Of a DNA stretch of 64,000 nucleotides, positions 3,292-63,984 are shown piece after piece (positions within the stretch are counted from its first letter, which is position 1; each line of letters begins with the position of its first letter). The stretch is from an uncultured bacterium. Its GTDB lineage: Bacteria > Bacillota_I > Bacilli_A > RFN20 > CAG-826. The notes under the pieces are model-generated. The model searched no databases. It had not been told where the DNA came from and worked only from the letters and a program-made list of their open reading frames with translations. The stretch spans positions 132,473 through 196,472 of the forward strand of contig CASFTG010000003.1 of the NCBI GenBank assembly GCA_949297805.1, given 5' to 3'. Position numbers and translations under genes: made by a program.

Positions 3292-5467
3292 GTCAAAGGC
3301 TTTGTCAAACCGAGCTTGGAATTCCCGGGTTCGGTCAAAAAACGTCACTGGGTCCGAGAAATGGTTCGGCTATTTACTCGGTCCTTGTGGGGCGTTGCTA
3401 TTCAATGCCGTCTTAGGTACTTACCTTAACGTCTACTACACCGACGTCTTGGGTTTAGGGTTCCTTTGGGGCGGATTGTTCTTGGTCATCTTCCCGGTCA
3501 TCTCGAAGATCATTGACGCGATCACCAACGTGGTGATGGGCTGGATCATCGACCGGACCAGGACTAAGCAAGGGAAAGCCCGACCCTGGCTACTATTAAG
3601 CGCGCCTTTCTTAGCCATCACCGGGGTTCTCCTCTTCGTAGTCCCGAGTGGGAATGTGACCTTACAAGCCGTCTGGGTCATGCTCTCCTATAACCTCTTC
3701 TATTCTTTCTCTTACACCATCTACAACATGAGCCACAACCTCATGGTTCCCCTTTCGACCCGGAACGCCGGTCAGCGGGGTGTGCTTGCGGTCTTCAACA
3801 ACGTATCCTCGATCATGATGAGCGGCATCGTGGTCGCCCTGATCTTCCCGATGGCCATCATGCCGTCTTTAGGGGCGTCGAAGACTTTGTGGATGATCGT
3901 TATGTCAGTCTTGGCTTGCATTACTTTGCCAGCCACCATCCTCGAATATTACTTCACCAAAGAACGAGTTACCGCCGAACTGGGCACCCAAAAGGAGAAG
4001 AAAGTCTCCTTCAAGCTGCAGCTGAAAGCCGTCTTCACTGACAAGTACATGCTGATATTACTCGGCTATTTCCTCCTTTATACCATCGCCTCCAACTTGA
4101 AGAACATGTCGTTGCCGTATTATTGCAACTACATCCTCGGCACTTATTCCGATGGCATCACCCAAACCCTCGTCTCCGTCATCGGCGGGGTCCCGATGGG
4201 AATTGGCATCTTTGCCGTTTGGCCTTTAGCCAAGAAATTCGGGAAGAAGAACGTTACCTGCGTCGGTTTCCTCCTTTATGGCATCGGTTCCCTAATCTGC
4301 TGGATGATGCCGACTAATCTCTACGTCGTCTTGGTTGGACAATTCATCAAGAACATCGGAGGTCTTCCTTGCTCCTATGTCTTCATGGCCCTCTTCTCCG
4401 ATACTTTAGATCATATGGAATGGAAGAACGGGTTCCGTTGCGACGGGCTTGCGATGTCGGTCTATTCGGTCATCTTGACCGCCGCCCAAGGCATCACCAC
4501 CGGCATCTTCAATGGCGGCATCGCCGCGACTGGCTATCAAGCCCCAGTCGTCACCACCGAGGCCGAACTTCAGTCGGCGTTGAATGAGATCGCCGCCAAT
4601 GGGTGGACGACCCAACTTGCGGCCGCTGACCTTAAAGCCGCGGCCGATGGCTCGATCACCATTGCCTTACAGCAAAACGCCAGCGTCAACAATATGATCA
4701 CATTCTTCTTCGTTGGCTTAGAGGTATTCGCTGGTCTGCTCTTCGCCTTCATGCTGATGTTCGTCCGGGTCGAGAAGACGCTCGATTCGAAACAGAAGAC
4801 CATCCGCGAAAGAATGCGTCTCGCTTGTGTTGCCGCCGGCGAAGTCTGGGTCGAGCCGGAAGTCGCGGTCGAGTTAGAGCAGAAGAAACTCGATGAAGAA
4901 GCCGAAGTCGCCTTCCGCGAGGAACTCAAAGCCAAATGCGAGAAGAAGCACTTGGATTACGAGGCTGAGTTAAAGAAACATATCGAGGCTTTAGAGGCGA
5001 AATCGGCCAAAGCTAAAGCCAAAGACGAGGCCATCGAGGCCAAAGCCGCGGCCAAGGCCAAGATCGCGGCCGATAAGCAGACGGCGAAGTTCGCTAAGAT
5101 GAGCGAAGAGAAGAAAGAGAAACTCAAGCTCAAATACGAACGGAAGCAGAAGCATGACGCCTACCTCTGGGCTATCGAACGAGCGAAAGGCGAAGTCCAT
5201 TACGCCAAGAGCTATGGCGAGATGCTTATCATTGATGAAGCCATGGAGCAGATTGAGGACAATAACCTCTCCATCAAAGAACTGAAAAAGGAAAGCCGGG
5301 CTGATATCAAAATCGGGCCGGAAAACGAAGCTAAGGTCAATGCGCTTCGGTTAGCCAACGCCAACTTGAAGGCGGTCGCTTCCCAAAAGGTCGCCGAGTT
5401 CCAAGAAGCCCATAAGCATGACGACTGGACGGTCTTAGCTCAGCAATATCTGTCTGAAGCCGCTTAA
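3284..5467 (+). CDS. MFS/GPH-family (MelB-like) glycoside:cation symporter with a ~230-aa charged coiled-coil C-terminal extension
   Basis: About 12 hydrophobic TM segments in the first ~490 aa. The [13 protein letters not shown] motif is typical of the GPH family. The Lys/Glu/Ala-rich heptad-like tail ([26 protein letters not shown]...) starts near residue 495. The ATG overlaps the upstream stop (ATGA), and an AAGGAGG RBS precedes it. Confidence 0.85.
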
Positions 5468-5537
5468 ATCACGAATCTATTCCCGAGGGGCTATCAGCCC
5501 TTTGGGAGTATTCGTTCTTAACTAAAAGGAGAGTCTC

Positions 5538-7967
5538 ATGCACTACGATAAGTGGATTGCCCCAACCGATCCTAAACCGAGCGAAATGGAAAACGCCCAT
5601 GCTGAGCTGGCCTATCAAGCTGGCTTAGAGGGAATGGTTCTGTTAGCTAATGACGGGACTTTGCCGTTGAAGAATAAACGGATTGCCCTCTATGGCGTTG
5701 GGGCCCGGCACGCCACCAAAGGCGGGACGGGCTCGGGCGAAGTCCATAACCGTTATAACATCAGCGTCGAAGAGGGATTGAAAAAGGCCGGCTGCGAAAT
5801 ACTTAGTTCGGGATGGCTCAATCGGTTGGATCAGGTGCAGGCCCAAGCGGAGCACGACCGGGTTCTGGCCTTGAAGAAGCGGCTCCATGAATGTGGTTTA
5901 TTCGACTGGCAAGGAATGGTCAACGCCGCGGTCGAGGTACCGCCGGTTTTTCCTTCCTCCCTCCCAATAAACGAAAAACTCGATACCGACACCGCCATCT
6001 ACGTCTTAACCCGTCAAGCGGGGGAAGGGAATGATCGGAAGGCCGGGAAAGGGGACTATTACCTCACCGATTTGGAGGATGAGAACATCGCTTTCCTGGC
6101 CAAGAACTATCCTCATTTCGTCTTGGTCATCAATTCCGGCGCCCCAATCGACCTCTCGATCCTTGATGAGGTAACCATCGGCAACGTCGTTTTCATGGGT
6201 CAAGCGGGGCAAGAGGGGGGTCGGATATTGGCGGACTTGCTATTAGGGAATGCCAATTTCTCGGGGCATCTCACCCTATCCTGGCCGAAGAAACTGGCGG
6301 ACCTCCCCAACGGGACTACTTACTCCTATTTAAAGGGAACCACCGATTATGAGGACTATGTCGAGGGGGTTTATGTCGGTTATCGGTTCTTCGATACTTT
6401 TGGGGTCGAGCCTCGTTACTATTTTGGGGAAGGCCTCTCCTATACCGAGTTCTCTTTGACGGCCGTTTTGGTTAAGGAAGGCAGCGATTTCTTCCTCGAT
6501 TATGAAGTTCATAACGTCGGGAAATATGGCGGTAAGGCAGTGGTGCAAGTTTACGCCTCACCTTTTACCTCCGTTACTTCCGAAGCAAAGAAACTCATCG
6601 GTTTTACGAAAACTAAGACCATCGTTCCAGGGGACTCGGTCAAGGGTCGGATAGCCCTCGATCCGCGCGATTTGGCCTATTATGAGGAGGCAAAATCCTC
6701 CTATGTGATCGCTTCGGGCCATTATGTTATCGCCGCCGGTTTCTCTTCCGTTTGCCCAAAACCGGTTGGCGTGATCGATGCCAAGGAAGCAATCGTATCG
6801 GAACGCTGCTTCCAACTTGGCTCGGCGAAGGACGAAGTGGAGGAAATCATTCCGCCGGAAAGAAGATACGTCTGTTATGAAAATATCCCAGTAATTTGCC
6901 TGGAGAAGAATGATATCCCTCCCATCGAACATGATTATTCGCCTTCAAGCTATCTCTCTATTCCGGTTTCCGATGAGGTTCTATGCGATCTAGTGGTTGG
7001 ATATCTGAATCCGGTCTCAAGCGAGAAACCGGTCGCGATCCCCGGATTCGGCGGGCGGACCTCGGCGAAATACTATACTGAGCTCGGCATTGATTGTTTG
7101 GCGACCGCCGATGGACCGGCTGGCTTACGGCTCAATCCGAAGTTCGCCGGAAGCGACGGGAAGAAAGCCCATGGGTCGATGATTCCCGAGGATATGCGGC
7201 TCGGCCGTCCTTTCTATAATTTCGTCGATAAGCTTCTCTCGATATCCTTCGCGAAAAAGCATTATCAATATGCGACGGCCTTTCCGGTCGGCCTAGTGCA
7301 AGCCGCGACTTGGAATGTCAATCTAGTCGAGAAAATCGGGCAGGCGGTTGGGGAGGAAATGGCCGCTTACGACATCGATATCTGGCTAGCTCCCGGCATG
7401 AACATCGTCCGTAACCCCCTATGCGGAAGAACCTTTGAATACTATTCCGAGGACCCATTGTTGACCGGTTGCTTAGCTGGTTATTTATCCAAAGGGGTGA
7501 ATTCGGTTCCTGGCCGCGGTTTGACCTTAAAGCACTTTTGCTGCAACTCCCAGGAGGATGACCGTTTCCACTGTGATTCCCGTGTCCATGAACGGGCCTT
7601 GCGGGAGATATATCTCAAAGCCTTCAAGATCGCGATCGCCATCGGCAATCCAACCTGCGTCATGAGTTCCTACAACCGGGTCAACGGGGAGTATGCGGGT
7701 TCAAATTCTGATCTATGTGAACGAGTTTTGCGGTCAGAATTCGGATTTAAAGGGTTTGTGATGTCGGATTGGGACGCGCAAGCCTCTGACCGGGCCAGCT
7801 GCGAAGGGCAACTTAAAGGCGGGACCGATCTATTGATGCCGGGGTCCCGCTGGACGAGGGAAGAGACCGCCAAAGCGTTAAAAGAGGGAAGACTCTGCCG
7901 AGCCGATTTAGAGAAAGCCGTTAATCGGATAATCAATGTCGCCAATAGATTGAAGGAGGGCCAATAA
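5538..7967 (+). CDS. Glycoside hydrolase family 3 enzyme with circularly permuted domain order (C-domain first, catalytic domain last)
   Basis: The N-terminus has the GH3 C-domain signature (VLLANDGTLPLKNKRIALYG). The catalytic-domain motifs sit near the C-terminus ([32 protein letters not shown]). Confidence 0.85.
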   Translation: MHYDKWIAPTDPKPSEMENAHAELAYQAGLEGMVLLANDGTLPLKNKRIALYGVGARHATKGGTGSGEVHNRYNISVEEGLKKAGCEILSSGWLNRLDQVQAQAEHDRVLALKKRLHECGLFDWQGMVNAAVEVPPVFPSSLPINEKLDTDTAIYVLTRQAGEGNDRKAGKGDYYLTDLEDENIAFLAKNYPHFVLVINSGAPIDLSILDEVTIGNVVFMGQAGQEGGRILADLLLGNANFSGHLTLSWPKKLADLPNGTTYSYLKGTTDYEDYVEGVYVGYRFFDTFGVEPRYYFGEGLSYTEFSLTAVLVKEGSDFFLDYEVHNVGKYGGKAVVQVYASPFTSVTSEAKKLIGFTKTKTIVPGDSVKGRIALDPRDLAYYEEAKSSYVIASGHYVIAAGFSSVCPKPVGVIDAKEAIVSERCFQLGSAKDEVEEIIPPERRYVCYENIPVICLEKNDIPPIEHDYSPSSYLSIPVSDEVLCDLVVGYLNPVSSEKPVAIPGFGGRTSAKYYTELGIDCLATADGPAGLRLNPKFAGSDGKKAHGSMIPEDMRLGRPFYNFVDKLLSISFAKKHYQYATAFPVGLVQAATWNVNLVEKIGQAVGEEMAAYDIDIWLAPGMNIVRNPLCGRTFEYYSEDPLLTGCLAGYLSKGVNSVPGRGLTLKHFCCNSQEDDRFHCDSRVHERALREIYLKAFKIAIAIGNPTCVMSSYNRVNGEYAGSNSDLCERVLRSEFGFKGFVMSDWDAQASDRASCEGQLKGGTDLLMPGSRWTREETAKALKEGRLCRADLEKAVNRIINVANRLKEGQ

Positions 7968-10510
7968 TGAAAGCCATTAACCTACATGTCGATTACCTTG
8001 TAAACCACTTGGGTTTAGGGAACCCCCATCCGACTTTGTCCTGGAACGATGAAGGTGGGATTAAGCAGACCGCCTACCGGCTGCTTGCTAAAACTAATGG
8101 ACAGGAAATCTATGATTCGGGCAAGGTTAATAGTTCGTCAATGAAAGTCGAACTGCCCGTCGAATTGAAGTCAAGGCAGGCCGTCGAATGGACGGTCATG
8201 GTCTATGACGAGAATGACCAATCCGAAGGTTGGAGCGAACCCGCCCATTTCGAGATGGGGCTGCTTTCCCCATCCGATTTCCATGCCTTTTGGATCAGCG
8301 GCAACTACTCGGTCAACAAGAAGGAACGTTACCCGGTCGATTGCTTTAAGAAGACCTTCCAAGTTGCCGGAGTTTCCCAAGCTCGGCTTTACATCACCGC
8401 CTGTGGCCTTTACGAAGCCAGAATCAATGGCCAAAGGGTTGGGGAATTTATTTTAGCTCCTGGCCATACCGATTATCGGAAACGGATTCAGTTACAAACC
8501 TATGACGTCACTTCTTTATTGAATGAAGGCGAGAACGTCATTGAGGTGATGTTGGCCGATGGCTGGTATCGGGGTTCCTGTGGGGCTTGGGGCTTACGGA
8601 ATCAATATGGCAAAGTAACCAAGCTTTTCGCCCAACTGGAGATTGAGGGGAAGATGGGCAAGAGAATGGTCCTTTCCGATGCTTCTTGGTCTTGGAGCAA
8701 CGATGGCCCGATCCGTTTTGCCGACAATAAGGACGGGGAAATCGTCGATTCGAATAAGAAGCCCTCTTATGCAGGTTTTGCCAAAGTTGCGAAGTGTTCG
8801 GTTATCCCGACTCCTTCCGATAACGTTTATATCCAAGAAGGCGAGCATTTCAGCCCTGTCGAGGTTACGGTCTCTCCTTCAGGCAAAACCATTTATAAGC
8901 TTCCCCAGAATATCGCCGGTTACGTTACTTTCAAAGCGAAGGCCCAAGGCGGGGAGATCATCAGACTCCAATGTGGGGAGATGCTCGATGAGCAGGGCGA
9001 ATTGACCTTGAAGAACATCCAATGCCGAAATAAGAAGAAGACCACCCCTTTGCAGCAGGTCGAATACGTCTGCCATCCCGGGGAGAATGTCTATAAGACC
9101 ACCTTCGCCATCTTTGGTTTCCAATATATCGCGGTGGAGGGACACGTCGATTCGATTGAAGGAATCGCTGTCTATTCGGCTTTGGAGGAGACCTTGACCT
9201 TTGATTCCTCCAATCCTTTGCTTAATAAGTTCGTTGAAGCCACCCGCTGGTCAGCCAAAAACAATTCGGCGGACGTCCCGACCGATTGTCCAACTAGGGA
9301 ACGGCATGGCTGGACTGGGGATTCCGAACTCTTCTTCTTAACCGCCGCCTATTTGTTCAACTATGCCCCTTTCGCTAAGAAGCATCTTCGTGACGTCTAT
9401 GATTGGCAGAAGAAAGACGGCAAATTGCCTCAGATCGCGCCCGCCGGCGGGGTTGACTTTTACATGGAAGTCATGAACGGGGCTCCGGGCTGGGCCGATG
9501 CCGGGATCATGATTCCTTATCGGTATTCCAAAATCTATCAGGATGAGGCGATTCTGCGGGAATTTTATCCAGGAATGAAGAAATACGCCGAATTCATCAT
9601 CCATCGGATGGGAAAACATACCCTTTTGTCGAAACCTTTGCATTTGAAGCACGCTTTGCGGAAATACGCGATAAATTACGGCCAAGCCTATGGGGAATGG
9701 GCCGAGCCCGCCGACGTCCATCCGATGGTCTGGACCGACTTTGTTTTCCCCAAGCCGGAAGTCTCCACCGCCTATGCCTCTTGGATGATGAAATGGATGA
9801 AGGAGATCGCGACAAAGCTTGGGAAAGAAGAGGATGCCAAACGCTTTGCCTTCTACCAAGAGAAGACCAAAGAAGCCTACCAGGCTATCCGGAAAACTGA
9901 AGAATACAAGCTCGATACCGACCGGCAGGCGATGCTGGTTCGGCCGCTTTATCTTGACTTGCTCGATAAGGAACAAACCGAGTATGCCAAGAAACGGCTG
10001 CTCGAGGCTTTAGACCATTATGATTGGCGTCTCGGCACTGGTTTCTTGTCCACACCGCTAATTTTGTTTGTCCTAGAGACAATCGACCCTGAGTATGCTT
10101 ATAAGTTGTTGGAGAATGAAAAGATGCCCGGCTGGCTCTTCATGCCCAAATCGGGAGCCACCACCATCTGGGAATCTTGGGAAGGGACCTGTGCTCAAGG
10201 GGGCGTTGCTTCCTTGGACCATTACTCCAAAGGCGCTTGCCTCGAATGGGTGTTCTCCCGGATGATGGGCATAAACCCTGACGGGGATAACCACTTCACT
10301 CTTTGCCCCCTTCCGGGCGGGCACTTCACCTATGCCGAATGCGAATACCGTTCGGTTTATGGGAAGGTTAAGGTCAGTTGGCGTCGGGCCGCCAACGGCT
10401 GGGATGTCGAGGTCGTCGTCCCATCCAATTGTCAGGCGACATTCGTCTATCCTGATAAGCGGATGGAGGAACTCGCCGCCGGGACCCATAAGCTAACTAT
10501 TGAAAACTAA
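7967..10510 (+). CDS. α-L-rhamnosidase (GH78)
   Basis: 847 aa. N-terminus is LHVDYLVNHLGLGNPHPTLSW. DVPTDCPTRERHGWTGD is the GH78 signature. The start overlaps the upstream stop (TAATG). Confidence 0.9.
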   Translation: MKAINLHVDYLVNHLGLGNPHPTLSWNDEGGIKQTAYRLLAKTNGQEIYDSGKVNSSSMKVELPVELKSRQAVEWTVMVYDENDQSEGWSEPAHFEMGLLSPSDFHAFWISGNYSVNKKERYPVDCFKKTFQVAGVSQARLYITACGLYEARINGQRVGEFILAPGHTDYRKRIQLQTYDVTSLLNEGENVIEVMLADGWYRGSCGAWGLRNQYGKVTKLFAQLEIEGKMGKRMVLSDASWSWSNDGPIRFADNKDGEIVDSNKKPSYAGFAKVAKCSVIPTPSDNVYIQEGEHFSPVEVTVSPSGKTIYKLPQNIAGYVTFKAKAQGGEIIRLQCGEMLDEQGELTLKNIQCRNKKKTTPLQQVEYVCHPGENVYKTTFAIFGFQYIAVEGHVDSIEGIAVYSALEETLTFDSSNPLLNKFVEATRWSAKNNSADVPTDCPTRERHGWTGDSELFFLTAAYLFNYAPFAKKHLRDVYDWQKKDGKLPQIAPAGGVDFYMEVMNGAPGWADAGIMIPYRYSKIYQDEAILREFYPGMKKYAEFIIHRMGKHTLLSKPLHLKHALRKYAINYGQAYGEWAEPADVHPMVWTDFVFPKPEVSTAYASWMMKWMKEIATKLGKEEDAKRFAFYQEKTKEAYQAIRKTEEYKLDTDRQAMLVRPLYLDLLDKEQTEYAKKRLLEALDHYDWRLGTGFLSTPLILFVLETIDPEYAYKLLENEKMPGWLFMPKSGATTIWESWEGTCAQGGVASLDHYSKGACLEWVFSRMMGINPDGDNHFTLCPLPGGHFTYAECEYRSVYGKVKVSWRRAANGWDVEVVVPSNCQATFVYPDKRMEELAAGTHKLTIEN

Positions 10511-10581
10511 CCTAGAAAACTGAAAAAACATTAAATACATGCACGATGGAGCTAACGGATAAAGGATAGAATTAACCAGCG

Positions 10582-11886
10582 ATGAAAAATAGGTTTCTAG
10601 CAATCGACATCGGCGCCTCTTCTGGTAGGGCGATTCTTTCGTCGGAGGCGGACGGTTTGCTCACTTGCGAGGAGGTTTATCGTTTCCCTAATGGCCCGCT
10701 TATGCAAGATGGCCATTTGGTTTGGGATATCCAACGGCTACTAAACGAAATCGAAAACGGGATAAGGGCCGCCTTTAAGGTTTGCCCGGATATCCGAAGC
10801 CTTTCTATTGATACTTGGGGCTGCGATTACGTCTTGCTTAAAGGCGATAAGGTCGTTTATCCCGCCTATTGCTACCGTGATTCTCGGACTGAAAAGGTCA
10901 TCGAGGAAGTCCACAAGCTCGCCCCTTTTTCCGAACTTTATGGCCTAACTGGCATCCAATTCCAACCATTTAATACCTTATATCAACTTTATGAGGATAA
11001 GGTGAACGGGAGGTTAGAGGGCGTCACCGACTTCTTGATGCTGCCGGAGTACTTTTCCTATCGGTTAACGGGGGTTAAGAAGAAGGAATACACCAACGCC
11101 ACCACGACCGGTTTAGTTGGGACGGATGGCGAGTTTGCCTCTTTGATTATCGATCGGCTCGGTCTTCCATCGCATCTTTTTCCCAAACTCAGCCAACCCG
11201 GAACGATCGTCGGGACGGTTCTCCCTGAGGTTGCGGCTGAACTCGGCGGGGATTGTCTTGTTAAACTTTGCGCTTCCCATGATACCGCTTCGGCGGTTGA
11301 GGGGGTGGTGCTCCCTAGCGACGCTCTTTATCTTTCTTCCGGCACTTGGTCGTTGCTCGGAGCCAAAGTCGAAACCCCGATCACGACCGAAGTGGCTCGT
11401 GCCTGTAACTTCTCCAATGAAGGCGGGCCCGGGTATATCCGGTTTCAAAAGAACATCATGGGAATGTGGGTCATTAACCGACTCAAGGATGAACTTTGCC
11501 CAGCGGAAGACTTCGCTTACGTCATCAAATTGGCTAAGCAAAGCCGTTCCAAGAAGACGGTTGCGATCAATGGGCCAGCCTATTTAGCCCCCGTCTCGAT
11601 GAGGCAAACTATCGAAGCGGAAATTGGGGAAGGGGAACTGCCTCCGAGCGAGTTATTCCGCATCGCCTTCAATTCCTTGGCGAAGTCTTATGCCGACACC
11701 ATCAAGCAAATTGAAGACATCACCCATAAATCATTCGATTCCCTCGTCATCTTCGGCGGCGGGGCCAAAAACGGCTTCCTCAACGAGTTGACTGAGCGGA
11801 TATCCGGCAAGCGGGTCATTGCTTTGCCGGTTGAGGCCACGAGCCTTGGCAATCTAAAAATCCAAATGAAAGGAGATAAAGCATGA
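10582..11886 (+). CDS. rhaB: Rhamnulokinase (FGGY carbohydrate kinase)
   Basis: N-terminus AIDIGASSGRAIL. FGGY-type C-terminus FGGGAKNGFLNEL. Lies immediately upstream of rhaA and rhaD. Confidence 0.85.
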   Translation: MKNRFLAIDIGASSGRAILSSEADGLLTCEEVYRFPNGPLMQDGHLVWDIQRLLNEIENGIRAAFKVCPDIRSLSIDTWGCDYVLLKGDKVVYPAYCYRDSRTEKVIEEVHKLAPFSELYGLTGIQFQPFNTLYQLYEDKVNGRLEGVTDFLMLPEYFSYRLTGVKKKEYTNATTTGLVGTDGEFASLIIDRLGLPSHLFPKLSQPGTIVGTVLPEVAAELGGDCLVKLCASHDTASAVEGVVLPSDALYLSSGTWSLLGAKVETPITTEVARACNFSNEGGPGYIRFQKNIMGMWVINRLKDELCPAEDFAYVIKLAKQSRSKKTVAINGPAYLAPVSMRQTIEAEIGEGELPPSELFRIAFNSLAKSYADTIKQIEDITHKSFDSLVIFGGGAKNGFLNELTERISGKRVIALPVEATSLGNLKIQMKGDKA

Positions 11887-13127
11887 CTGACAAGTATTTA
11901 TTGGCGAAGGAGGAATACGCCAAAGCTGGCGTCGACATCGACGCCGCCATCGCCCGGATCAAGGAGATCCCCATCTCGATCCATTGCTGGCAAGGGGATG
12001 ATGTCATCGGCTTCGATGGGTCCGATTCTTTAGAAGGCGGGATCCAGACGACCGGCAATTACCCGGGACGGGCTCGGAATTTCGCAGAGCTGAAAGCCGA
12101 CCTCCATGAGGCTTTCTCCCTCATCCCGGGGAAGAAACGGCTCAACCTCCATGCCTCCTATGCCATCCTTAACGGCGAAAAGGTGGAACGGGACGCCTAT
12201 CGTCCTGAACACTTCGCCCCTTGGGTTGAATTTGCCAAAGAGGAAGGACTCGATGGGATTGATTTCAACCCGACTCTCTTCTCGAGCCCCCATATGAAAG
12301 ACGGGGTGTCTTTATCTTCTCCGGATGAAGAAACGAGGAAATTCTGGGTCCGCCACTGCCAAGCCTGTATCCGGATTTCGGAATATTTCGCTAAGGAAAT
12401 GGGAAGCCACTGCCTAATGAACATCTGGATTCCCGATGGGTATAAGGATGTGCCCGCCGATCGATTAGGGCCGCGCCTCCGCTTGAAAAAGAGCCTCGAT
12501 GAAATCCTTTCAATCGGCTATGACCGTAGCCTTGTCAAAGTCGCGGTCGAGAGCAAGGTATTCGGCATTGGGCTCGAATCCTATACTGTTGGCAATTCCG
12601 AATTCTATATGAATTATGCGGCGAAGAATAACCTTTGCTGCCTATTGGATAATGGCCATTACCACCCCTTAGAATACGTGAGCGATAAGATTCCTTCCTT
12701 GATCGCTTTCTATGATAACGTTGCTCTCCATGTCACGCGGGGAGTCCGTTGGGACTCCGATCACGTGGTCACCTTTGAGGATGAACTGAAAGAGATCGCT
12801 AAGGAAATCATCCGGAATGAGGCCGATAAGAAAGTCATGATTGGCTTGGATTATTTCGATGCCTCGATCAACCGGATCGCCGCGTGGGTCACCGGGGCGC
12901 GGAATATGGAGAAGGCGTTGCTTTATGCGGCCTTAATAAACAATAAGAAGTTGAAGGAACTGCAGGATCAAGGCGACTTCACCACCCTCTTCGTCGAGAC
13001 CGAGGCTCTGAAGGATCGGCCATATGGATTGGTCTGGGAAGAATACTTAAAAGAGCAGGGGCTCGAACTTGATTATCTAACCCCGATTAGAGAATACGAA
13101 AAACAAGTCTTAAGCAAGAGGAAATAA
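11883..13127 (+). CDS. rhaA: L-rhamnose isomerase
   Basis: 414 aa with IHCWQGDDVIGFDG and the conserved metal-binding region. The ATG overlaps the rhaB stop (ATGA). Confidence 0.9.
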   Translation: MTDKYLLAKEEYAKAGVDIDAAIARIKEIPISIHCWQGDDVIGFDGSDSLEGGIQTTGNYPGRARNFAELKADLHEAFSLIPGKKRLNLHASYAILNGEKVERDAYRPEHFAPWVEFAKEEGLDGIDFNPTLFSSPHMKDGVSLSSPDEETRKFWVRHCQACIRISEYFAKEMGSHCLMNIWIPDGYKDVPADRLGPRLRLKKSLDEILSIGYDRSLVKVAVESKVFGIGLESYTVGNSEFYMNYAAKNNLCCLLDNGHYHPLEYVSDKIPSLIAFYDNVALHVTRGVRWDSDHVVTFEDELKEIAKEIIRNEADKKVMIGLDYFDASINRIAAWVTGARNMEKALLYAALINNKKLKELQDQGDFTTLFVETEALKDRPYGLVWEEYLKEQGLELDYLTPIREYEKQVLSKRK

Positions 13128-13129
13128 GT

Positions 13130-13960
13130 ATGAAAGACATTTTGGAAAGCCGGTTCTTAAAAGAATTCTGTCTAACCGCCGACAACATGTATCGGCTCGG
13201 CTGGGATGAACGGAACGGGGGCAACATCTCGTTGCTGCTTAAAGACGAGGAGGTCAAGGAATACCTTGATGTCAACTCGGTTAAGCGGGTCATCCCCTTA
13301 ATGGGAGTTCATACGGTCGATTTCGATATCTCGCCCCTTATTGGAAAGTGCTTCCTCGTCACCGGGACCGGCAAGTACTTTAAAAACGTCTTACGGGAAC
13401 CGGAAGTCAACCTCGGCGTCGTCCGGATTCGCGAGGACGGCAAGTCGCTTGATCTGCTTTGGGGATTTGAAGATGGGGGACGGCCGACGAGCGAATTCCC
13501 AGCCCATATGATGAGCCATATCGCCCGGCTTTCAGTCGATCCGGATAATCGGGTGGTGATGCATTGCCATCCGACCTATACCCTAGCCATGAACTTCGTC
13601 CATCCCCTTGATGAGAAGCTCTTCACCAAAGACCTCTGGCGGATGTGCACCGAATGCGTCGTCGTCTTCCCCGATGGAATCGGGGTCTTGCCTTGGATGC
13701 TCTGCGGGACGACTGAAATTGGGAAAGCAACCGCCGAGAAGATGAAGGAATACCGGCTGGTCGTCTGGGCGATGCACGGGATCTATGGGGCGGGTAAGGA
13801 CTTAGACGAAACCTTCGGCCTCATCGAGACGGTCGAAAAAGCGGCCCAGATATACATGCTGACCTTCGATAAGCCCCAGTGCAACACCATCAGCGATGAC
13901 AACATGAAGCAACTGGTTGACTTGTTCGCAGTCAAAGTAAAAGAGGGCTATCTTGATTAA
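13130..13960 (+). CDS. rhaD: Rhamnulose-1-phosphate aldolase (class II aldolase)
   Basis: 276 aa. It has a class II aldolase/adducin fold signature (HCHPTY, MHGIYGAG) and follows rhaA. Confidence 0.9.
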   Translation: MKDILESRFLKEFCLTADNMYRLGWDERNGGNISLLLKDEEVKEYLDVNSVKRVIPLMGVHTVDFDISPLIGKCFLVTGTGKYFKNVLREPEVNLGVVRIREDGKSLDLLWGFEDGGRPTSEFPAHMMSHIARLSVDPDNRVVMHCHPTYTLAMNFVHPLDEKLFTKDLWRMCTECVVVFPDGIGVLPWMLCGTTEIGKATAEKMKEYRLVVWAMHGIYGAGKDLDETFGLIETVEKAAQIYMLTFDKPQCNTISDDNMKQLVDLFAVKVKEGYLD

Positions 13961-45052: not shown

Positions 45053-45080
45053 TGACGGGGCTCCAGCCCCGTTTTCTTAT
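45053..45080 (+). terminator. Rho-independent terminator after recA
   Basis: ACGGGGC-TCCA-GCCCCGT followed by TTTCTTATT. Confidence 0.65.
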
Positions 45081-45388: not shown

Positions 45389-46969
45389 ATGATACTAACA
45401 TCCCTTCTTTCGACCGGAGGCTGGATTGGCCTAATGGTCGGTTTAGCCGTGGTCGCGGCCGCCTTAGGCGTCGGCCTCACCTTCTTGTTGCTTTCCCATA
45501 AATCGAAAGCGGTCGGCCGGAACGCCGATGCGATGCTCAAGGAAGCCAAAATCAAGGCCGAGCATTTACTGAAGAACGCCGAGATCGATGCTAAGCAAGC
45601 TGCCTTCGAAGCCAAGCAACAAGCCGATAACGAGATTCGGACCCGGAAAGGCGAACTGGCTGGGCTAGAGCAGAAGCTCACCCTCCGCGAGCAGGCTATC
45701 GATCAGCGCGATGCCCAACTCCTTGCTAAGGAGAATGCCTTAGACAAGAAAAACGAGCAACTTGAAAAATCGATCGAATCGTATAAGAACCGGCAAGCCG
45801 AACTTGATCAGAAGATCGACTCCATCATCACCGAGTTGGAGAAAGTCTCCGGCATGTCAACCCAGCAAGCCAAAGACGAGATCATGGCCCGGGTCGAATC
45901 GAAGATGGCGATGGAAATCGCGGCCTATATCAAAAACGCCGAAGACGAAGCCAAGGAGACGGCAGCTTCGAAAGCCATCGATCTCCTTGCCCTCGCTTGC
46001 CAAAAATACGCCCAGGACGTCACCACCGAAAGGACCGTCTCGGTCGTGGCTTTGCCTAGTGACGAGATGAAGGGCCGGATCATTGGCCGGGAAGGGCGGA
46101 ATATCCGGGTCTTAGAGCAAGAACTCGGGGTCGACCTCGTCATCGACGATACCCCGGAAGCCATCACCGTTTCCTGCTTTGATCCGATCAGGCGGGAAAT
46201 CGCCAGGCGGACCCTGGAATATCTCGTTAAGGATGGGCGTATCCAGCCCGGCCGGATCGAGGATGTCTCAGCCAAATGCAAGAAAGAAGTGGCCGAAACC
46301 GTTCAAAAGTATGGCGAGGAAGCCTGCTTCAAACTTGGTTTGCCCCGAATCAACAAAGAACTGGTCGCTTATATCGGCCGTCTCCATTACCGGACTTCCT
46401 ATGGGCAAAATGCCCTCGAGCATTCGATGGAAGTCGCTTATCTTTCTGGCTTAATGGCCGGGGAATTGGGGCTTGACGTCAACCTTGCCCGCCGGGCTGG
46501 CTTACTCCACGACATCGGCAAATCCGTCGACTTCGAGATGGAAGGCAGCCACGTCCAACTTGGCGCTCAATTAGCCAAGAAATATGGAGAGTCCGATGTG
46601 GTGATCAATGCCATCGAATCCCACCATGGCGATGTCGAGGCTCGTTATGTCATCTCCCATCTAGTCGCGGCCGCCGATACCTTGTCGGCTGCCCGGCCAG
46701 GCGCGCGGAGCGAGACCCTGGAGACCTATGTTAAACGGGTGGAGCAGCTGGAAGGCTTAGCCAAATCCTTCGATGGGGTCCAGCAAGCCTACGCCATGCA
46801 GTCGGGCCGCGAGATCCGGGTCATGGTCATGCCGGATAAGATTTCCGATGCTGAATCGGTTTTGCTTGCTCAACAACTTCGGGAGAAGATTGAGAAGGAG
46901 ATGACCTATCCGGGTCAGATCAAGGTTTCGGTCATCCGTGAGTATCGGGCCATCGAAACCGCTAAATAA
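45389..46969 (+). CDS. rny: Ribonuclease Y (TM anchor + coiled coil + KH + HD)
   Basis: N-terminal TM (GWIGLMVGLAVVAAALG). KH domain (GRIIGREGRNIR). HD (HDIGK). AAGGAG RBS. Confidence 0.9.
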   Translation: MILTSLLSTGGWIGLMVGLAVVAAALGVGLTFLLLSHKSKAVGRNADAMLKEAKIKAEHLLKNAEIDAKQAAFEAKQQADNEIRTRKGELAGLEQKLTLREQAIDQRDAQLLAKENALDKKNEQLEKSIESYKNRQAELDQKIDSIITELEKVSGMSTQQAKDEIMARVESKMAMEIAAYIKNAEDEAKETAASKAIDLLALACQKYAQDVTTERTVSVVALPSDEMKGRIIGREGRNIRVLEQELGVDLVIDDTPEAITVSCFDPIRREIARRTLEYLVKDGRIQPGRIEDVSAKCKKEVAETVQKYGEEACFKLGLPRINKELVAYIGRLHYRTSYGQNALEHSMEVAYLSGLMAGELGLDVNLARRAGLLHDIGKSVDFEMEGSHVQLGAQLAKKYGESDVVINAIESHHGDVEARYVISHLVAAADTLSAARPGARSETLETYVKRVEQLEGLAKSFDGVQQAYAMQSGREIRVMVMPDKISDAESVLLAQQLREKIEKEMTYPGQIKVSVIREYRAIETAK

Positions 46970-46972
46970 CCT

Positions 46973-47785
46973 ATGCGAGTCCTTTTCTTAGGCGACGTCG
47001 TCGGACCGGTGGGGTTGCAGTCCCTTGAATCCCTCCTCCCCGCGCTTAAGGAAAGGCTTTCGCCGCATCTAGTCATCGTTAACGGGGAGAACGCCTCCAA
47101 AGGGCGGGGTCTCACTCGAGCCGACTATAATCGGATTAAAGCCGCTGGGGCTGATGTCATCACCCTCGGTAACCATTTCCTCGATAAGAAGCAGATTTCC
47201 TCCTTCATCGATGATTGCCCGGATTTACTTAGGCCTCTGAATTCGGCTGATTACGAGAAAGGCCGGGGGCTTGGCGTCTACCAAACTGCCCTTGGTCCCG
47301 TCGCCGTGGCCTCGATCCTCTTGCCGGCTTTCGTTAACAACAAAGTGAATAATCCCTTCGAGGTTTTCGAGAAGGCCTTGGTTGATCTTCCAAGTATCCG
47401 CATCGTCGATCTCCATGGGGAGTCGACCTCGGAGAAGCAGCTTTTCTTCCATTACTTCCGGGGCCGCTGCTCGGCGATACTCGGGACCCATACCCACGTG
47501 ATGACCGCCGACGCCGAAATCAAAGAGGGGACCGCCTTTATGGCTGATGTCGGGATGTGCGGGGCCGATGATTCGATCATTGGGGTTGACCCCCAAAGCG
47601 TCATCAATCGTTTAATCAAGCAAGACGGTACCTATTTCCATTGCCCGGAAGATGGGATTGGACTCGTCTGCGGAGCCTATTTGGAAATCGAAGAAGACGG
47701 GAAAGCGAGCCGCATCATCCCGTTCCGTTTCCGCGATAATAAGGAGATTGCCTATGAGCCGTTGCCAAATCATATCCCTGCCTGA
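46973..47785 (+). CDS. ymdB: YmdB-family metallophosphoesterase (2',3'-cNMP phosphodiesterase, TIGR00282)
   Basis: MRVLFLGDVVG..., GNH, GTHTHV motifs. Follows rny, as in B. subtilis. Confidence 0.85.
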   Translation: MRVLFLGDVVGPVGLQSLESLLPALKERLSPHLVIVNGENASKGRGLTRADYNRIKAAGADVITLGNHFLDKKQISSFIDDCPDLLRPLNSADYEKGRGLGVYQTALGPVAVASILLPAFVNNKVNNPFEVFEKALVDLPSIRIVDLHGESTSEKQLFFHYFRGRCSAILGTHTHVMTADAEIKEGTAFMADVGMCGADDSIIGVDPQSVINRLIKQDGTYFHCPEDGIGLVCGAYLEIEEDGKASRIIPFRFRDNKEIAYEPLPNHIPA

Positions 47786-49493
47786 CTTAAGCAAAGCGAG
47801 AAACCGTCAGGATGGGGCCAGCGTCAAATACGATGAAGCCGTCTATAGCGACGCGCTCCGCTTTTTTGCCAAGGGCCGAAAGTATTTGGTTAAGACCTTT
47901 GGCTGCCAAGGCAATGTCCGGGACGAAGAGGTCATATCCGGCTATTTGGAGAAGGCCGGATTCAGTAAAACTACTGATGAAAAGGCGGCCAATATCGTCA
48001 TCATCAATACCTGCGCTGTCCGGGAGAATGCCGAGGATAAGGTCTATGGCGAGATTGGGAAGTTTAAGGCCAATGCCAAGACCGATAAGGATTTCATCCT
48101 CGGCGTCTGCGGCTGCATGATGCAGGAAGAAAACAAAGCCGAAAGCCTGATTAAGACCTATCCTTTCATCAGATTGATTTTCGGGACCCATAATATCGCT
48201 GACTTACCCTCGATGCTTGATCGCGTGATTAGCAGTCACCAGGGCTTAGTTGATGTAATCTCCTATCCCGGGGACGTTATTGAGAATCTTCCTTCGATTC
48301 GGCTTGATCCTTACAAAGCCTTCGTCAATATCTCCTATGGCTGCGATAAGTTCTGCACTTATTGCATTGTCCCCTATACCCGGGGAAGAGAAAGGAGCCG
48401 GCCTTTGCAATCGATCCTTGATGAATGCCGAAAGCTTATTGAGGATGGGTATCAGGAAATCACCCTTTTGGGGCAAAACGTCAATTCCTATGGTAAGGAT
48501 TTCCATGATGGGACCAACTTCGCGACCGTCTTAGAGGAAGTGGCTAAACTTGGTATCCCCCGACTTCGCTTTACTACCTCCCACCCTTGGGACTTCTCGT
48601 TGGATATGCTTGATACCATTGCGAAGTACCCAAACATCATGAAATGTATCCACCTCCCCGTCCAAAGCGGCTCGACCGCGGTCCTTCGTCAAATGGGGCG
48701 CCGTTATACGAGAGAACAATATCTGGACCTAGTCAAAGCCATCCGCGAGAGGATGCCGGAATGCGCCATCACCACCGACATCATCGTCGGCTTCCCAAAT
48801 GAGACCGAAGAGCAATTCGCGGAGACTTTAACCCTTTGTCAGGAATTGAAGTATGACGCCGCCTTCACCTTCATCTATTCCCCCCGGGCGGGGACGCCGG
48901 CCGCCAAAATGGTCGATAACGTCTCCGATGAAGTGAAGCACGAACGGTTCAATAGGCTGCTGAAGGTTGTCGAGGAAGGGGTCGTCTATCATTCGTCGAA
49001 AATGGTTGGGAAAGCCTATGATGTTTTAGTCGATGGGCCGAGCAAGAAAAACGAAGCCATCCTTTCTGGCTATACCGAATCGAACAAGCTGGTCAATTTC
49101 CCTGGCCCGGTTTATTTAAAGGGGCATATCGTTAAGGTCAAGATCACTGAAAACCATGCCTTCTCGATGCTTGGGCAATTAGAAGAGGATCCGGTCGATG
49201 TCTTGTTGCGAAGCGCCTCGGAAAAGCTAAAGCAGGAGCCGGCCTATATCCAATATTTGGCGGCGAAGAAAGTTTTTGAGGAAGATAAGGAATTGCAAGC
49301 GGCCCTCCATGAAAAAGAAGCGGCTCAAAAAGCCCTGGCCTTATCGATGGGGAGCGAAGATTACGAAAATAAGAAGGCGGCTTTTGCGAAGATTTCCGCC
49401 TTCGTGGACAATAATCCCAATTACATAAATTTCGTTTCTTCAACCGCCGATCTGCGGGACTTATTTGCCGAAATGAAGGCCCTCCTCCAATGA
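47754..49493 (+). CDS. miaB: tRNA i6A37 methylthiotransferase MiaB fused to a C-terminal YmcA/YlbF (RicA)-like domain
   Basis: MTTase N-domain (KTFGCQGN). Radical-SAM CDKFCTYC. TRAM domain ending ..HIVKVKITENHAFSMLGQL. Then ~100 extra aa (SEKLKQEPAYIQYLAAKKVFEEDKELQAAL ... NPNYINFVSSTADLRDLFAEMKALL) matching the Com_YlbF helix pattern. The AAGGAG RBS lies inside ymdB. Confidence 0.85.
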   Translation: MSRCQIISLPDLSKARNRQDGASVKYDEAVYSDALRFFAKGRKYLVKTFGCQGNVRDEEVISGYLEKAGFSKTTDEKAANIVIINTCAVRENAEDKVYGEIGKFKANAKTDKDFILGVCGCMMQEENKAESLIKTYPFIRLIFGTHNIADLPSMLDRVISSHQGLVDVISYPGDVIENLPSIRLDPYKAFVNISYGCDKFCTYCIVPYTRGRERSRPLQSILDECRKLIEDGYQEITLLGQNVNSYGKDFHDGTNFATVLEEVAKLGIPRLRFTTSHPWDFSLDMLDTIAKYPNIMKCIHLPVQSGSTAVLRQMGRRYTREQYLDLVKAIRERMPECAITTDIIVGFPNETEEQFAETLTLCQELKYDAAFTFIYSPRAGTPAAKMVDNVSDEVKHERFNRLLKVVEEGVVYHSSKMVGKAYDVLVDGPSKKNEAILSGYTESNKLVNFPGPVYLKGHIVKVKITENHAFSMLGQLEEDPVDVLLRSASEKLKQEPAYIQYLAAKKVFEEDKELQAALHEKEAAQKALALSMGSEDYENKKAAFAKISAFVDNNPNYINFVSSTADLRDLFAEMKALLQ

Positions 49494-50362
49494 TCATTGT
49501 CTTAACTGGGGTCACCGGCTCAGGCAAAAGCGAACTGGCAATCCGTTTGGCTCAAAAAGTTAATGCTGGCATCGTCAATGCCGATGCTTTCCAAGTCTAC
49601 GAGGAACTGAATATCGCGACCGCCAAGCCGACCATAGAGATGATGATGGCGGCCCCTCATTTCCTTTTTGATTTCATTCCTCTTTCCTCTTCTTACTCGG
49701 TCGCCGAATATCAAGAAGACCTAAGGTCGGCGATCGCGACTTTAGAAAAGCAAGGGAAGAATGTCATCATCGCCGGCGGGACCGGTCTCTACATCCGGGC
49801 CGGGCTTTATGACTATGAGTTTCCCACTTTGCCGAAAGTCGATTTATCTTCTTATGAATCTTTAGAGGATGAGGCTTTATATGCCGCGGCTTTGTCTTTT
49901 GACGAAGCGGAGGCAAAGACCATCCACCCCCATAACCGGGTCCGGTTATTACGGTTAATCGAGATGGCTTTAGGTGGGCAAAAGAAAAGTGAAGTCAAGC
50001 AAGCCCAGACCCATAAGCCGATTTATGATGTCCATTTCTTCGGCCTCGAGGTCGAGCGGGAGGATATTTACCCCCGGGTTGAACGAAGGGTCGATAAGAT
50101 GTTCGAAATGGGGTTAGTTGAGGAGGACCGGCGCTTAGTCGAAAAATATGGGCGTGACTGCCAAGCGTTTAAAGCCATCGGGGTCAAGGAACTTTTCCCT
50201 TACTTCGATGGGAAGATTTCTTTAGAACAGGCCAAAGACGACATTAAGAAAAACACTCGTCATTACGTGAAGCGGCAAGAGACTTTCTTCCGTCATCAAT
50301 TCGATATCGTTTGGGTCAAAGGCGAGGAGGACATTTTAAATGGCTTATCCTGCGATCTATGA
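49490..50362 (+). CDS. miaA: tRNA dimethylallyltransferase
   Basis: P-loop LTGVTGSGKS. 290 aa. The ATG overlaps the miaB stop. Confidence 0.9.
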   Translation: MIIVLTGVTGSGKSELAIRLAQKVNAGIVNADAFQVYEELNIATAKPTIEMMMAAPHFLFDFIPLSSSYSVAEYQEDLRSAIATLEKQGKNVIIAGGTGLYIRAGLYDYEFPTLPKVDLSSYESLEDEALYAAALSFDEAEAKTIHPHNRVRLLRLIEMALGGQKKSEVKQAQTHKPIYDVHFFGLEVEREDIYPRVERRVDKMFEMGLVEEDRRLVEKYGRDCQAFKAIGVKELFPYFDGKISLEQAKDDIKKNTRHYVKRQETFFRHQFDIVWVKGEEDILNGLSCDL

Positions 50363-51050
50363 ACGGACGGTCCAGCTTTTAGGCGAAGAGAATTTCGCTA
50401 AGCTAAAAATAGCCAAAGTCGCCATCGTTGGCTTAGGCGGGGTCGGCGGAACCTGCTTTATGTGCCTCCTTCGAAGCGGGCTTTCCGCTTTCCTTTTAGT
50501 CGATGACGACGTCATTAACGAAAATAACCTCAACCGTCAGATTCTCTATTCCCCGTCGGATGTTGGCAAAACGAAAGTCGAGGCCGCGAAGCAATACGCC
50601 CGTCCTTATATTGAAAACGAACAATCTATTGCCATCGATTCCCGTTGGCTAGGACCTGACAATATCGATAGTTTTGGCTTTGAGAATTACGATGTGGTCA
50701 TCGATTGCATTGATGACGTGCCGGCAAAGGTAGCCTTAGCCGAATATTGTCTTCAACGCCATATTCCCTTTTTGATGTCTTTGGGGATGGGCAATCGGCT
50801 TGACCCAACGAAAGTTACTTTAACCAGTTTAGATAAGACCGAGGGCTGCCCATTGGCCCGGAAGCTCCGTTACGAATCACGGAAAAAAGGCATCGATATC
50901 CGTCGGATTACCGTGGCTTTTTCTTCCGAAGAGCCATTGCGGAAAGGCCCGGTTCCCGCCTCGATCATGACGGTCCCAAGCGCCGCCGGCTTGGCCTTGG
51001 CTTACGGGGCGATGAAGATTTTGCTCTTTAATTTTTCTCCCGAGGGTTAA
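50340..51050 (+). CDS. tcdA: tRNA threonylcarbamoyladenosine dehydratase (ThiF/MoeB E1-like)
   Basis: Rossmann VAIVGLGGVGG. The family motif LVDDDVINENNLNRQ. Confidence 0.8.
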   Translation: MAYPAIYERTVQLLGEENFAKLKIAKVAIVGLGGVGGTCFMCLLRSGLSAFLLVDDDVINENNLNRQILYSPSDVGKTKVEAAKQYARPYIENEQSIAIDSRWLGPDNIDSFGFENYDVVIDCIDDVPAKVALAEYCLQRHIPFLMSLGMGNRLDPTKVTLTSLDKTEGCPLARKLRYESRKKGIDIRRITVAFSSEEPLRKGPVPASIMTVPSAAGLALAYGAMKILLFNFSPEG

Positions 51051-52908: not shown

Positions 52909-52947
52909 GAAGATTCCCTCCTACATATTAAGTAGGAGGATTTTCTT

Positions 52948-62898: not shown

Positions 62899-63687
62899 AT
62901 GTACGAAGAGCATTTAGCCGCCATCAAGGAAGCCTTGCCCCATAGCCGAGAGTTGATCCTTTCGATTTACCATACCGATTTCGCGGTCGAGATCAAAGAC
63001 GATGACTCGCCGGTCACCAAGGCCGATAAAGCCAACGATGCCTACTTACGGGAATTCCTTTCCAAGCGGTTCCCCGACATCGGCTTTTTAACTGAAGAAA
63101 GCATGGATACCAAACAACGGCTGCACCAAAAAGCTATCTGGATCATCGATCCAGTCGATGGGACAAGCGAATTCGTCCATCGAACTGATGAATTCACTGT
63201 TAATATCGCCCTTTGTGTTGATCACGAAATCGTTTTAGGGATCATTTATGCCCCGGTTCCCAACCGGCTTTACTATGCCATCAAAGGGCAAGGGGCTTAT
63301 GTTGAGCAAGGCTTCAAAAACCCGGTTCGCCTCCATGTAAGCGACAAAGACAGCGGCTTGAAAGCCATGCGCTCCATTTCCCATTTCAATGAGAAAGAAA
63401 AAGCCTTCATGGAACGGAATAAGGCGAAGTTCATGGGTGAGGCGACTCCGGTTGGGGCGGCCTTGAAGTTCGCCTATCTCGCGGAAGGTAAGTTCGATTT
63501 CTATATTCGGATTTCCGGCGGGACCAAGAAATGGGACGTCGCCTCAGGCGATTTGATCCTGAGCGAAGCCGGCGGGGTCATGGTTGAGCCGAGCGGGGCC
63601 CATCTAACCTATAACCGGGAAGACGTCTATAACCGAAATGGTTACGTGATGGCCAATAAGGAAAGCAACTTATTGCTTGGGAAGTGA
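62899..63687 (+). CDS. Inositol-monophosphatase-family protein (CysQ-like 3'(2'),5'-bisphosphate nucleotidase candidate)
   Basis: WIIDPVDGTSEF metal-binding motif, WDVASGDLIL. I chose the ATG at 62899 (GGAGGA RBS 8 nt upstream) over the TTG at 62893. Confidence 0.75.
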   Translation: MYEEHLAAIKEALPHSRELILSIYHTDFAVEIKDDDSPVTKADKANDAYLREFLSKRFPDIGFLTEESMDTKQRLHQKAIWIIDPVDGTSEFVHRTDEFTVNIALCVDHEIVLGIIYAPVPNRLYYAIKGQGAYVEQGFKNPVRLHVSDKDSGLKAMRSISHFNEKEKAFMERNKAKFMGEATPVGAALKFAYLAEGKFDFYIRISGGTKKWDVASGDLILSEAGGVMVEPSGAHLTYNREDVYNRNGYVMANKESNLLLGK

Positions 63688-63984
63688 GTTGCTCGCTTCC
63701 TTTTTCTTTAGATAGGCTTCCATTAAGTCGGCCGGGACGTCATTGGCTTTGACTGCCATGACGCCGGGGACTTCCTCCATGACGATAATCTCAACTCCGG
63801 TCGAGATGTCGTCATTGGCTAAAGCGCAGCCCTCGCAGGCCCCGACCATCGCTACATAGGCGATCCCGTCGCGGAACCCGATATATTCGATATCGCCTCC
63901 ATCCCGGCGGAGGAAGGGACGGATTTTATCCAAGGTCGCCTGAATGGCTTTTTCGGTGTCTTCGGTATTCATAACGGAGGGCAT
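63670..63984 (-). CDS. NifU C-terminal-domain (Nfu-like) Fe-S carrier protein
   Basis: GGDIEYIGFRDGIAYVAMVGACEGC (CxxC). The start is uncertain: ATG at 63984 or 63972, neither with a clear SD. Confidence 0.65.
   Translation of the reverse strand: MPSVMNTEDTEKAIQATLDKIRPFLRRDGGDIEYIGFRDGIAYVAMVGACEGCALANDDISTGVEIIVMEEVPGVMAVKANDVPADLMEAYLKKKEASNSLPKQ

Follow-up and report, generated by a model that had tools for sequence, protein, structure and literature searches.

A MiaB-RicA Fusion Gene in an Uncultured Member of the Bacilli

Analysis of a 64,000-nucleotide (nt) stretch of contig CASFTG010000003.1 (assembly GCA_949297805.1, positions 132,473 to 196,472), which derives from an uncultured bacterium of the Bacilli_A and is referred to below as the window, revealed a single gene, miaB::ricA, in which the reading frame of the tRNA methylthiotransferase MiaB continues into a C-terminal module of the RicA (YmcA) type (Table 1). 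Direct reading of the window gives an open reading frame (ORF) from the ATG at 47754 to the TGA at 49491-49493 with no internal stop codon, and the start position is the same as in aligned homologues. The ATG sits 32 nt inside the upstream YmdB ORF (46973-47785), and a Shine-Dalgarno-like sequence within the ymdB 3' end precedes it. A preliminary description of this DNA had placed the ribosome-binding site inside ymdB and the beginning of the extension at about nt 49182-49190, and both are as described there.

Regarding the MiaB part, the MTTase N-terminal domain (UPF0004), the radical SAM core and the TRAM domain are all present, and the MiaB equivalog model TIGR01574 of NCBIfam matches amino acids (aa) 43-475 with 523.3 bits against a cut-off of 355.3, covering model positions 1-435 of 437. 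Across 36 aligned homologues, the auxiliary [4Fe-4S] cluster cysteines of the UPF0004 domain (C51, C87, and C121) and those of the radical SAM motif C197-x3-C201-x2-C204, located inside YGCDKFCTYCIVPY, are invariant. The full-length AlphaFold model has a predicted local distance difference test (pLDDT) value of 84.7 and a predicted template modelling (pTM) score of 0.82, and its comparison with PDB entry 7mjz gives a target-normalised template modelling (TM) score of 0.89. The MiaB of Bacteroides uniformis (PDB 7mjv-7mjz) resembles the fusion protein in fold (target-normalised TM about 0.9), sequence (40% identity), domain order and cluster cysteines, but ends after the TRAM domain, without a C-terminal helical module. 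Because of its domains, the six invariant cluster cysteines and the fold match to a solved MiaB, the MiaB part looks complete and functional, and the fusion product is expected to be a methylthiotransferase making 2-methylthio-N6-isopentenyladenosine at position 37 (ms2i6A37) in tRNA. Together with a Com_YlbF (PF06133) match in the extension and the conservation of the arrangement in relatives, the TIGR01574 match bears out the earlier proposal of a MiaB with an in-frame extension of about 100 aa in one polypeptide, which source annotations in the databases name just MiaB.

Table 1. Features of the miaB::ricA locus, with positions counted from the first letter of the window.
Feature	Position	Strand	Basis and remarks
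miaB::ricA fusion gene	47754..49493	+	579 codons, then TGA 49491-49493; ORF reading and homologue lengths
Shine-Dalgarno-like AAGGAG	47741..47746	+	7-nt spacer to ATG; within ymdB 3' end; sequence reading
MTTase N-terminal domain UPF0004, aa 43-144	47880..48185	+	Pfam, 92 bits
Radical SAM core, aa 191-361	48324..48836	+	Pfam Radical_SAM, 100 bits
TRAM domain, aa 416-476, end of MiaB part	48999..49181	+	Pfam, 42.9 bits
Fusion junction 'LGQLEEDPV'	49173..49199	+	Comparison with split relative L003
RicA (YmcA)-type Com_YlbF module, aa 477-579	49182..49490	+	Pfam, profile, AlphaFold2, Foldseek, dN/dS
Com_YlbF match PF06133, aa 490-576	49221..49481	+	Pfam
Terminator-like hairpin after recA, upstream of rny	45054..45073		Consensus scan
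rny (RNase Y), first gene of probable operon	45389..46969	+	Pfam RNase_Y_N, KH_1, HD
ymdB	46973..47785	+	Pfam YmdB, 259 bits; 32-nt overlap with fusion gene
miaA (tRNA isopentenyltransferase)	49490..50362	+	Pfam IPPT, 230 bits; ATG overlaps fusion TGA (ATGA 49490-49493)
ThiF-family gene (putatively TcdA-like)	50340..51050	+	Pfam ThiF, 123 bits; overlaps miaA
Terminator-like hairpin after fhs and DUF951 gene	52917..52939	+	Consensus scan only; first strong one downstream

Identity of the C-Terminal Module

The preliminary description had assigned the extension to RicA and had suggested a hidden Markov model (HMM) search with PF06133, which gave 32.1 bits for the full-length protein and 36.7 bits (E 6.4e-9) for the tail by itself, above the gathering score of 23.9. 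A profile built from an alignment of 27 fused tails was searched against PDB sequences and matched B. subtilis RicA/YmcA (6prh, 2pih) with an E-value of 1.7e-10 and 44.5 bits, covering RicA residues 14-111, followed by RicF (6prk_A; E 1.5e-3, 22.2 bits) and the YheA-like DUF964 protein 2oeq (E 2.2, 12 bits). The 27-sequence profile was needed for this assignment; single-sequence phmmer of the tail against the PDB gave no match, and no NCBIfam model identifies the tail as RicA, the matches being at chance level only. Modelled by AlphaFold on the same alignment, the tail forms five helices (pLDDT 94) in place of the two-helix pattern described earlier, and the best 10 Foldseek matches in the PDB are all Com_YlbF structures (6prk, 6prh, 2pih, 2oeq, 2iaz; query-normalised TM 0.56-0.74).

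It is the RicF chain 6prk_A that stands first in the Foldseek ranking, with a query-normalised TM of 0.74, and this, like the lack of a phmmer match, would be in line with a tail that is another Com_YlbF paralogue (RicF or a YheA/UPF0342-like protein) or a generic helical extension. RicA and RicF are inseparable by fold alone; they are separated by sequence and gene position, and both favour RicA, since the profile scores RicA far above RicF and 2oeq, and since in relatives a stand-alone orthologue is located exactly at the ymcA site, overlapping the miaB stop codon. A non-RicA origin is accordingly very improbable, and the tail is identified, as in the preliminary description, as a RicA (YmcA)-type module; it is orthologous to the gene that directly follows miaB in other Bacilli.

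Conservation of the Fused Reading Frame

The homologue survey comprised at least 120 database clusters (among the matches listed) of 60-100% identity from ENA, NCBI, Logan and JGI assemblies. All 120 clusters among the matches listed are 569-587 aa long and all but one (P0094) have a precomputed PF06133 match, so that a survey of MiaB extensions in relatives, likewise suggested in the preliminary description, returned fusions of the same architecture. In the DNA of two relatives (L088 and L089; 86-89% protein identity) over 60% of synonymous sites differ from those of the window, and the frame is still open in both.

Close relatives do have two genes overlapping at this very point, and a sequencing or assembly error near nt 49190 that masks a stop codon or frameshift could thus make two genes appear as one. 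Such an error has practically no likelihood, because the same uninterrupted architecture recurs across many independent ENA, NCBI, Logan and JGI assemblies. The three divergent DNA copies (window, L088 and L089) also speak against it, as does the fused junction, which is shorter than the split one and not merely mutated. The hidden stop named in the preliminary description as a ground for refuting the fusion is thereby excluded.

The ratio of nonsynonymous to synonymous substitution rates (dN/dS; Nei-Gojobori method; window, L088 and L089) amounts to 0.04-0.05 over codons 1-476 and to 0.09-0.16 over codons 477-579, values that are rough given dS near saturation. The RicA module is thus clearly under purifying selection, though its constraint is below that of the enzyme part.

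Split Relatives and Origin of the Fusion

A search with the tail profile of 1.84 billion cluster representatives found many stand-alone homologues of about 103 aa, and three split relatives (L003, L004, L005) have a miaB of 478-480 aa that overlaps a ricA of 103-110 aa by 4-8 nt. These relatives share with the window the gene order pgsA-cinA-recA-rny-ymdB-miaB-ricA-miaA-(ThiF)-fhs, and, as the preliminary description states for B. subtilis, they have ricA as a separate gene next to miaB. In the split relative L003, MiaB ends in '...HAFSMLGELVR*' and RicA starts with 'MSGEEKDPVLL...', the two being joined via an ATGA overlap, while the window has HAFSMLGQLEEDPVDVLL across the junction and reads through as 'MLGQLEEDPV'. 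The fusion thus derives from the adjacent, translationally coupled miaB (ymcB)-ricA (ymcA) pair of most Bacilli. A deletion of about 17 nt at the overlapping stop and start codons would have removed the miaB stop and brought ricA in frame, and would have arisen among uncultured, Mollicutes-like Bacilli that form a clade from gut and rumen.

The distribution of fused and split forms was surveyed in GTDB species representatives, which were sampled via the conserved peptide 'CDKFCTYC' and then analysed by ORF and HMM searches; this sample covers the Bacilli broadly and leaves out most close relatives, and all locus counts are lower bounds. At least six loci are fused (L001, L002, L006, L007, L012, L019), with MiaB down to 50-55% identity with the window, and all come from metagenome-assembled genomes (MAGs) labelled 'Bacilli bacterium', 'Mollicutes bacterium' or uncultured bacterium. 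In a rough neighbour-joining tree of the MiaB part, most fused forms fall in one clade. A split, short ricA (91-116 aa) was found in at least 17 loci, including Candidatus Fiminaster, Erysipelatoclostridium and MAGs labelled Erysipelotrichaceae or Tenericutes, and a split, long ricA (mostly 137-164 aa) in at least about 45 loci of Bacillaceae and Staphylococcaceae; in the split loci sampled, both short (L003-L005 included) and long, ricA lies directly downstream of miaB.

The short stand-alone RicA of Mollicutes- and Erysipelotrichaceae-like MAGs resembles the module of the window in its domain limits, the conserved 'HP...N' motif and the position after miaB, and differs in being encoded by a separate gene, the fusion being a derived state of this short form. 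In the B. subtilis ymcB-ymcA pair the two families likewise follow one another in this order, and the start of ricA overlaps or abuts the stop of miaB; in the window, however, the two are one polypeptide, and the RicA part has about 100 aa as compared to 143 aa in B. subtilis and lacks the C-terminal tail with C141.

No adjacent ricA was detected by the ORF/HMM scan in at least 13 loci (L031, L022, L023, L025, L035, L038, L040, L050, L069, L072, L080, L081, L084), several of them labelled as Erysipelotrichaceae or its genera. In one of these (L031, 4311-4582), just about 270 nt lie between miaB and miaA. Loss of ricA, or its divergence past detection, may account for this in these lineages. 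Apparent full-length fusions returned by tblastn in Gracilibacillus, Cerasibacillus, Piscibacillus and Mammaliicoccus proved to be two adjacent genes in different frames.

The Missing C-Terminal Tail and the RicAFT Complex

Beyond the helical core, RicA of Bacillaceae and Staphylococcaceae has a tail of about 30-40 aa with the pattern '..VT(N/D)EII.STGGDLL.GETGSK....C..', whereas the RicA module of the window stops at the last helix and has zero cysteines in aa 477-579. The same holds for the loci sampled, since no C-terminal tail was found in any fused form or in the short split forms, with the exception of L026 (1951-2298), an uncultured Erysipelatoclostridium sp. MAG whose 116-aa RicA has a 9-aa tail, 'ITGGINEKC', ending in cysteine. 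This RicA may represent a stage between the form with the long tail of Bacillaceae and the form without a tail.

In B. subtilis, C141 in the C-terminal tail of RicA is a ligand of Fe-S cluster 2, and removal of the last 23 residues abolishes association with RicT (PMC6751060). In sequence type the helical core of the module corresponds to RicA, and in fold to RicA/RicF as known from the RicAFT (YmcA-YlbF-YaaT) Fe-S complex (Y-complex) of B. subtilis, but the part of RicA that provides RicT binding and the cluster 2 cysteine there is absent (PMC6751060). Because the tail and cysteine needed in B. subtilis are missing here, a RicAFT-type Fe-S complex cannot be assumed for this module, and the earlier suggestion of an Fe-S-containing Ric complex acting through it is weakened. 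The retention of RicA without tail and cysteine in a whole lineage would mean that the function of the helical core is separable from the RicT and Fe-S function.

Regarding the other two proteins of the complex, neither ricF nor ricT was found in the window when its six-frame segments were searched by HMM and phmmer, the queries being the tail profile, fragments of RicA and RicF from B. subtilis and an approximate RicT sequence. The fusion itself was the sole match of the combined ricF/ricT scan of all six frames of the 64-kb window, in which the RicT motif (CX4CCX30CX4CC) was looked for in the relaxed form CX4CCX20-40CX4CC. The flanking DNA recovered beyond the two sides of the window (2.6 kb and 8.2 kb) contains no second Com_YlbF gene and no PSP1/RicT-like gene.

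Genomic Neighborhood and the Question of RNase Y

Pfam confirmed the neighbors pgsA, a CinA domain, recA, rny, ymdB, the fusion gene, miaA, the ThiF-family gene, fhs and a DUF951 gene, and RNase Y is thus encoded in the window itself (ORF 45389-46969, with RNase_Y_N, KH and HD domains). Strong terminator-like hairpins were found by consensus scan only after recA and after the DUF951 gene, and the genes in between either overlap or have no more than 26 nt between them; the region from rny to the DUF951 gene is therefore likely one operon. Within this apparent rny-ymdB operon, miaB::ricA, miaA and the TcdA-like gene (to 51050) form a tight cluster for tRNA position 37, which covers N6-isopentenyladenosine (i6A), ms2i6A and probably cyclic N6-threonylcarbamoyladenosine (ct6A). 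In B. subtilis, rny-ymdB lies upstream of ymcB-ymcA in the same region, and miaA, which directly follows the fusion in the window, is farther away, beyond cotE-mutS-mutL; the mutS-mutL block, which separates miaB-ricA from miaA in that species, is missing here.

In the loci sampled, miaB has rny-ymdB no more than 3 kb upstream in all fused loci with recovered upstream DNA (5/6, L019 being cut at a contig end), in 15/17 short-split loci and in 23/62 other Bacilli loci. The rny-ymdB-miaB order is therefore inherited ancestral synteny of the Bacilli and is not specific to the fusion, and the position of rny-ymdB adds no independent evidence because unfused relatives have the same order. The location behind rny-ymdB and before miaA allows co-expression, and an interaction with RNase Y does not follow from it. 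Of the MiaB-Ric-RNase Y connection that the preliminary description had put forward, the part that stands is the MiaB-RicA association, for which the fusion argues, while the argument from position falls away.

Fused RicA might nevertheless tie MiaB to the RicF-RicT Fe-S complex and thereby to RNase Y, coupling tRNA methylthiolation with RNA processing. This would agree with rny and ymdB being directly upstream in an apparent single operon, with the requirement for RicA in the hand-off of RicT to RNase Y in B. subtilis, and with the possible presence of RicT here, given that it is reported to be nearly universal in firmicutes, RicA and RicF being more restricted (PMC10245838). In the published model, RicA and RicF hand RicT, and not mRNAs as the preliminary description had assumed, to RNase Y, and it is RicT, not RicA or RicF, that is the stable partner of RNase Y (PMC10245838). 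Since stable RicA-RNase Y binding is not seen even in B. subtilis (PMC10245838), the module has neither the tail nor the cysteine on which RicT binding and cluster 2 depend in the RicA of that species (PMC6751060), the gene order is also found in unfused genomes, and no ricF or ricT lies within the 64-kb window or the recovered flanks of 2.6 kb and 8.2 kb, such a coupling is decidedly improbable.

MiaB and RicA as Probable Partners

Conserved natural fusion is a classic genomic signal of physically cooperating proteins. Extensive conservation of the miaB-ricA pair across Bacilli, with an unclear functional relationship, was described in 2010 (Anton et al., PMC2952846); in B. subtilis the ymcB and ymcA ORFs appear translationally coupled (PMC10245838). 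So far RicA has been studied mostly in connection with Spo0A phosphorylation and the RNase Y specificity complex. The reading that we consider probable is that of a genuine and stable miaB-ricA fusion with an intact MiaB, in which a tail-less RicA module serves as an interaction domain in cis, and of MiaB and RicA as partners in Bacilli. The fusion is a fair argument that suggests a physical association of MiaB with RicA, and it is evidence for this partnership and not for a link to RNase Y; by the usual logic of fused domains, we infer that the two are physical partners in Bacilli generally.

In such a partnership the RicA module, placed straight after the tRNA-binding TRAM domain, would act in cis with MiaB as a protein-protein interaction domain, contributing no Fe-S ligand. 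The outcome would be a MiaB dimer or the recruitment of a RicF-like partner, since B. subtilis RicA is a homodimer alone and forms a heterodimer with RicF (PMC6751060). PDB entry 9a6d, known from its title only, is an integrative model in which the MiaB paralogue MtaB is in complex with YvfG; it would be another instance of a methylthiotransferase paired with a different protein, although it concerns another paralogue, an unrelated partner and no fusion; no paper on MtaB-YvfG was found in the literature.

Several points weigh against a functional partnership. Direct evidence of MiaB-RicA contact exists in no organism, and the AlphaFold model was judged by pLDDT and pTM, in which inter-domain contacts are not visible. 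In B. subtilis, ymcB is dispensable for biofilm, unlike ymcA (unpublished observation cited in bioRxiv 10.1101/564526), so that MiaB and RicA are not obligate partners for the biofilm phenotype. The tail evolves 2-4 times faster than the core as judged by dN/dS. In the rough neighbour-joining tree, moreover, the split L003 (6568-8333, ATGA overlap) falls inside the fused clade, and the fused L012 (2983-4725, junction 'GELVDEDSLIK') falls outside it, among split forms. Because of these two positions the fused or split state has probably changed more than once, by fusion or fission at the same overlap, and a state that seems to flip so easily also fits a near-neutral fusion.

According to this alternative, two coupled genes were merged by a deletion at the junction and the modules keep unrelated jobs, so that no interaction is implied. 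Overlapping stop and start codons allow fusion in one step, the tree points to one or more additional fusions (L012) and to a split inside the fused clade (L003), and the ymcB and ymcA mutant phenotypes differ in B. subtilis (bioRxiv 10.1101/564526). The fused state has, however, been kept across a clade whose MiaB sequences are down to about 50-55% identity, purifying selection acts on the module, the conserved pairing of miaB and ricA across Bacilli already hints at a functional link, and a dimerising module on an enzyme is unlikely to have no effect. We therefore regard a near-neutral merger as rather unlikely, and prefer the reading of MiaB and RicA as partners.

A more far-reaching form of this partnership, which we regard as speculative and on balance unlikely, is that the ancestral general job of RicA in Bacilli was to be a partner of MiaB rather than a part of the RNase Y machinery, the cysteine tail having been added later in Bacillaceae and Staphylococcaceae. 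Were this so, RicA could dimerise MiaB or position it on tRNA, or help reload its auxiliary Fe-S cluster, the sulfur source of MiaB; the tail-less and fused forms would display the core function of RicA, and part of the pleiotropic ricA phenotype could run via ms2i6A in tRNA and translation. The fusion gives rise to a cheaply testable hypothesis, namely that RicA binds MiaB and affects ms2i6A. No mention of a fused MiaB-RicA protein was found in the literature on RicA/YmcA with MiaB/YmcB or on Ric proteins in Mollicutes, and the fusion is apparently undescribed, although both component families are known and the architecture is visible in precomputed Pfam matches.

Other Observations

Proteins with two tandem Com_YlbF domains (266-267 aa) are encoded at two further loci (P0179, L090 6001-6804; P0184, L091 5037-5840) and have an internal 'CTGR.LNGCGP' motif and a C-terminal 'GCCG'. 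The gene for P0179 adjoins ArsR-type regulators, an SBF/ACR3-type carrier, ArsD and two ArsA-type ATPases, and this would place a pair of Com_YlbF domains, with no relation to miaB, in a cluster resembling those for arsenic resistance.

Elsewhere in the window, a rhamnoside-utilisation cluster at 850-13960 comprises two GH3 glycosidases, an MFS_2 transporter, an alpha-L-rhamnosidase, a rhamnulokinase-type FGGY kinase, RhaA and a class II aldolase, with Pfam assignments taken from a contig whose first protein of the cluster is identical (L086). About 14 kb downstream of the fusion, a small gene on the minus strand (63670-63984) encodes a NifU domain (PF01106; Pfam match from locus L087) and is possibly an Fe-S cluster carrier.

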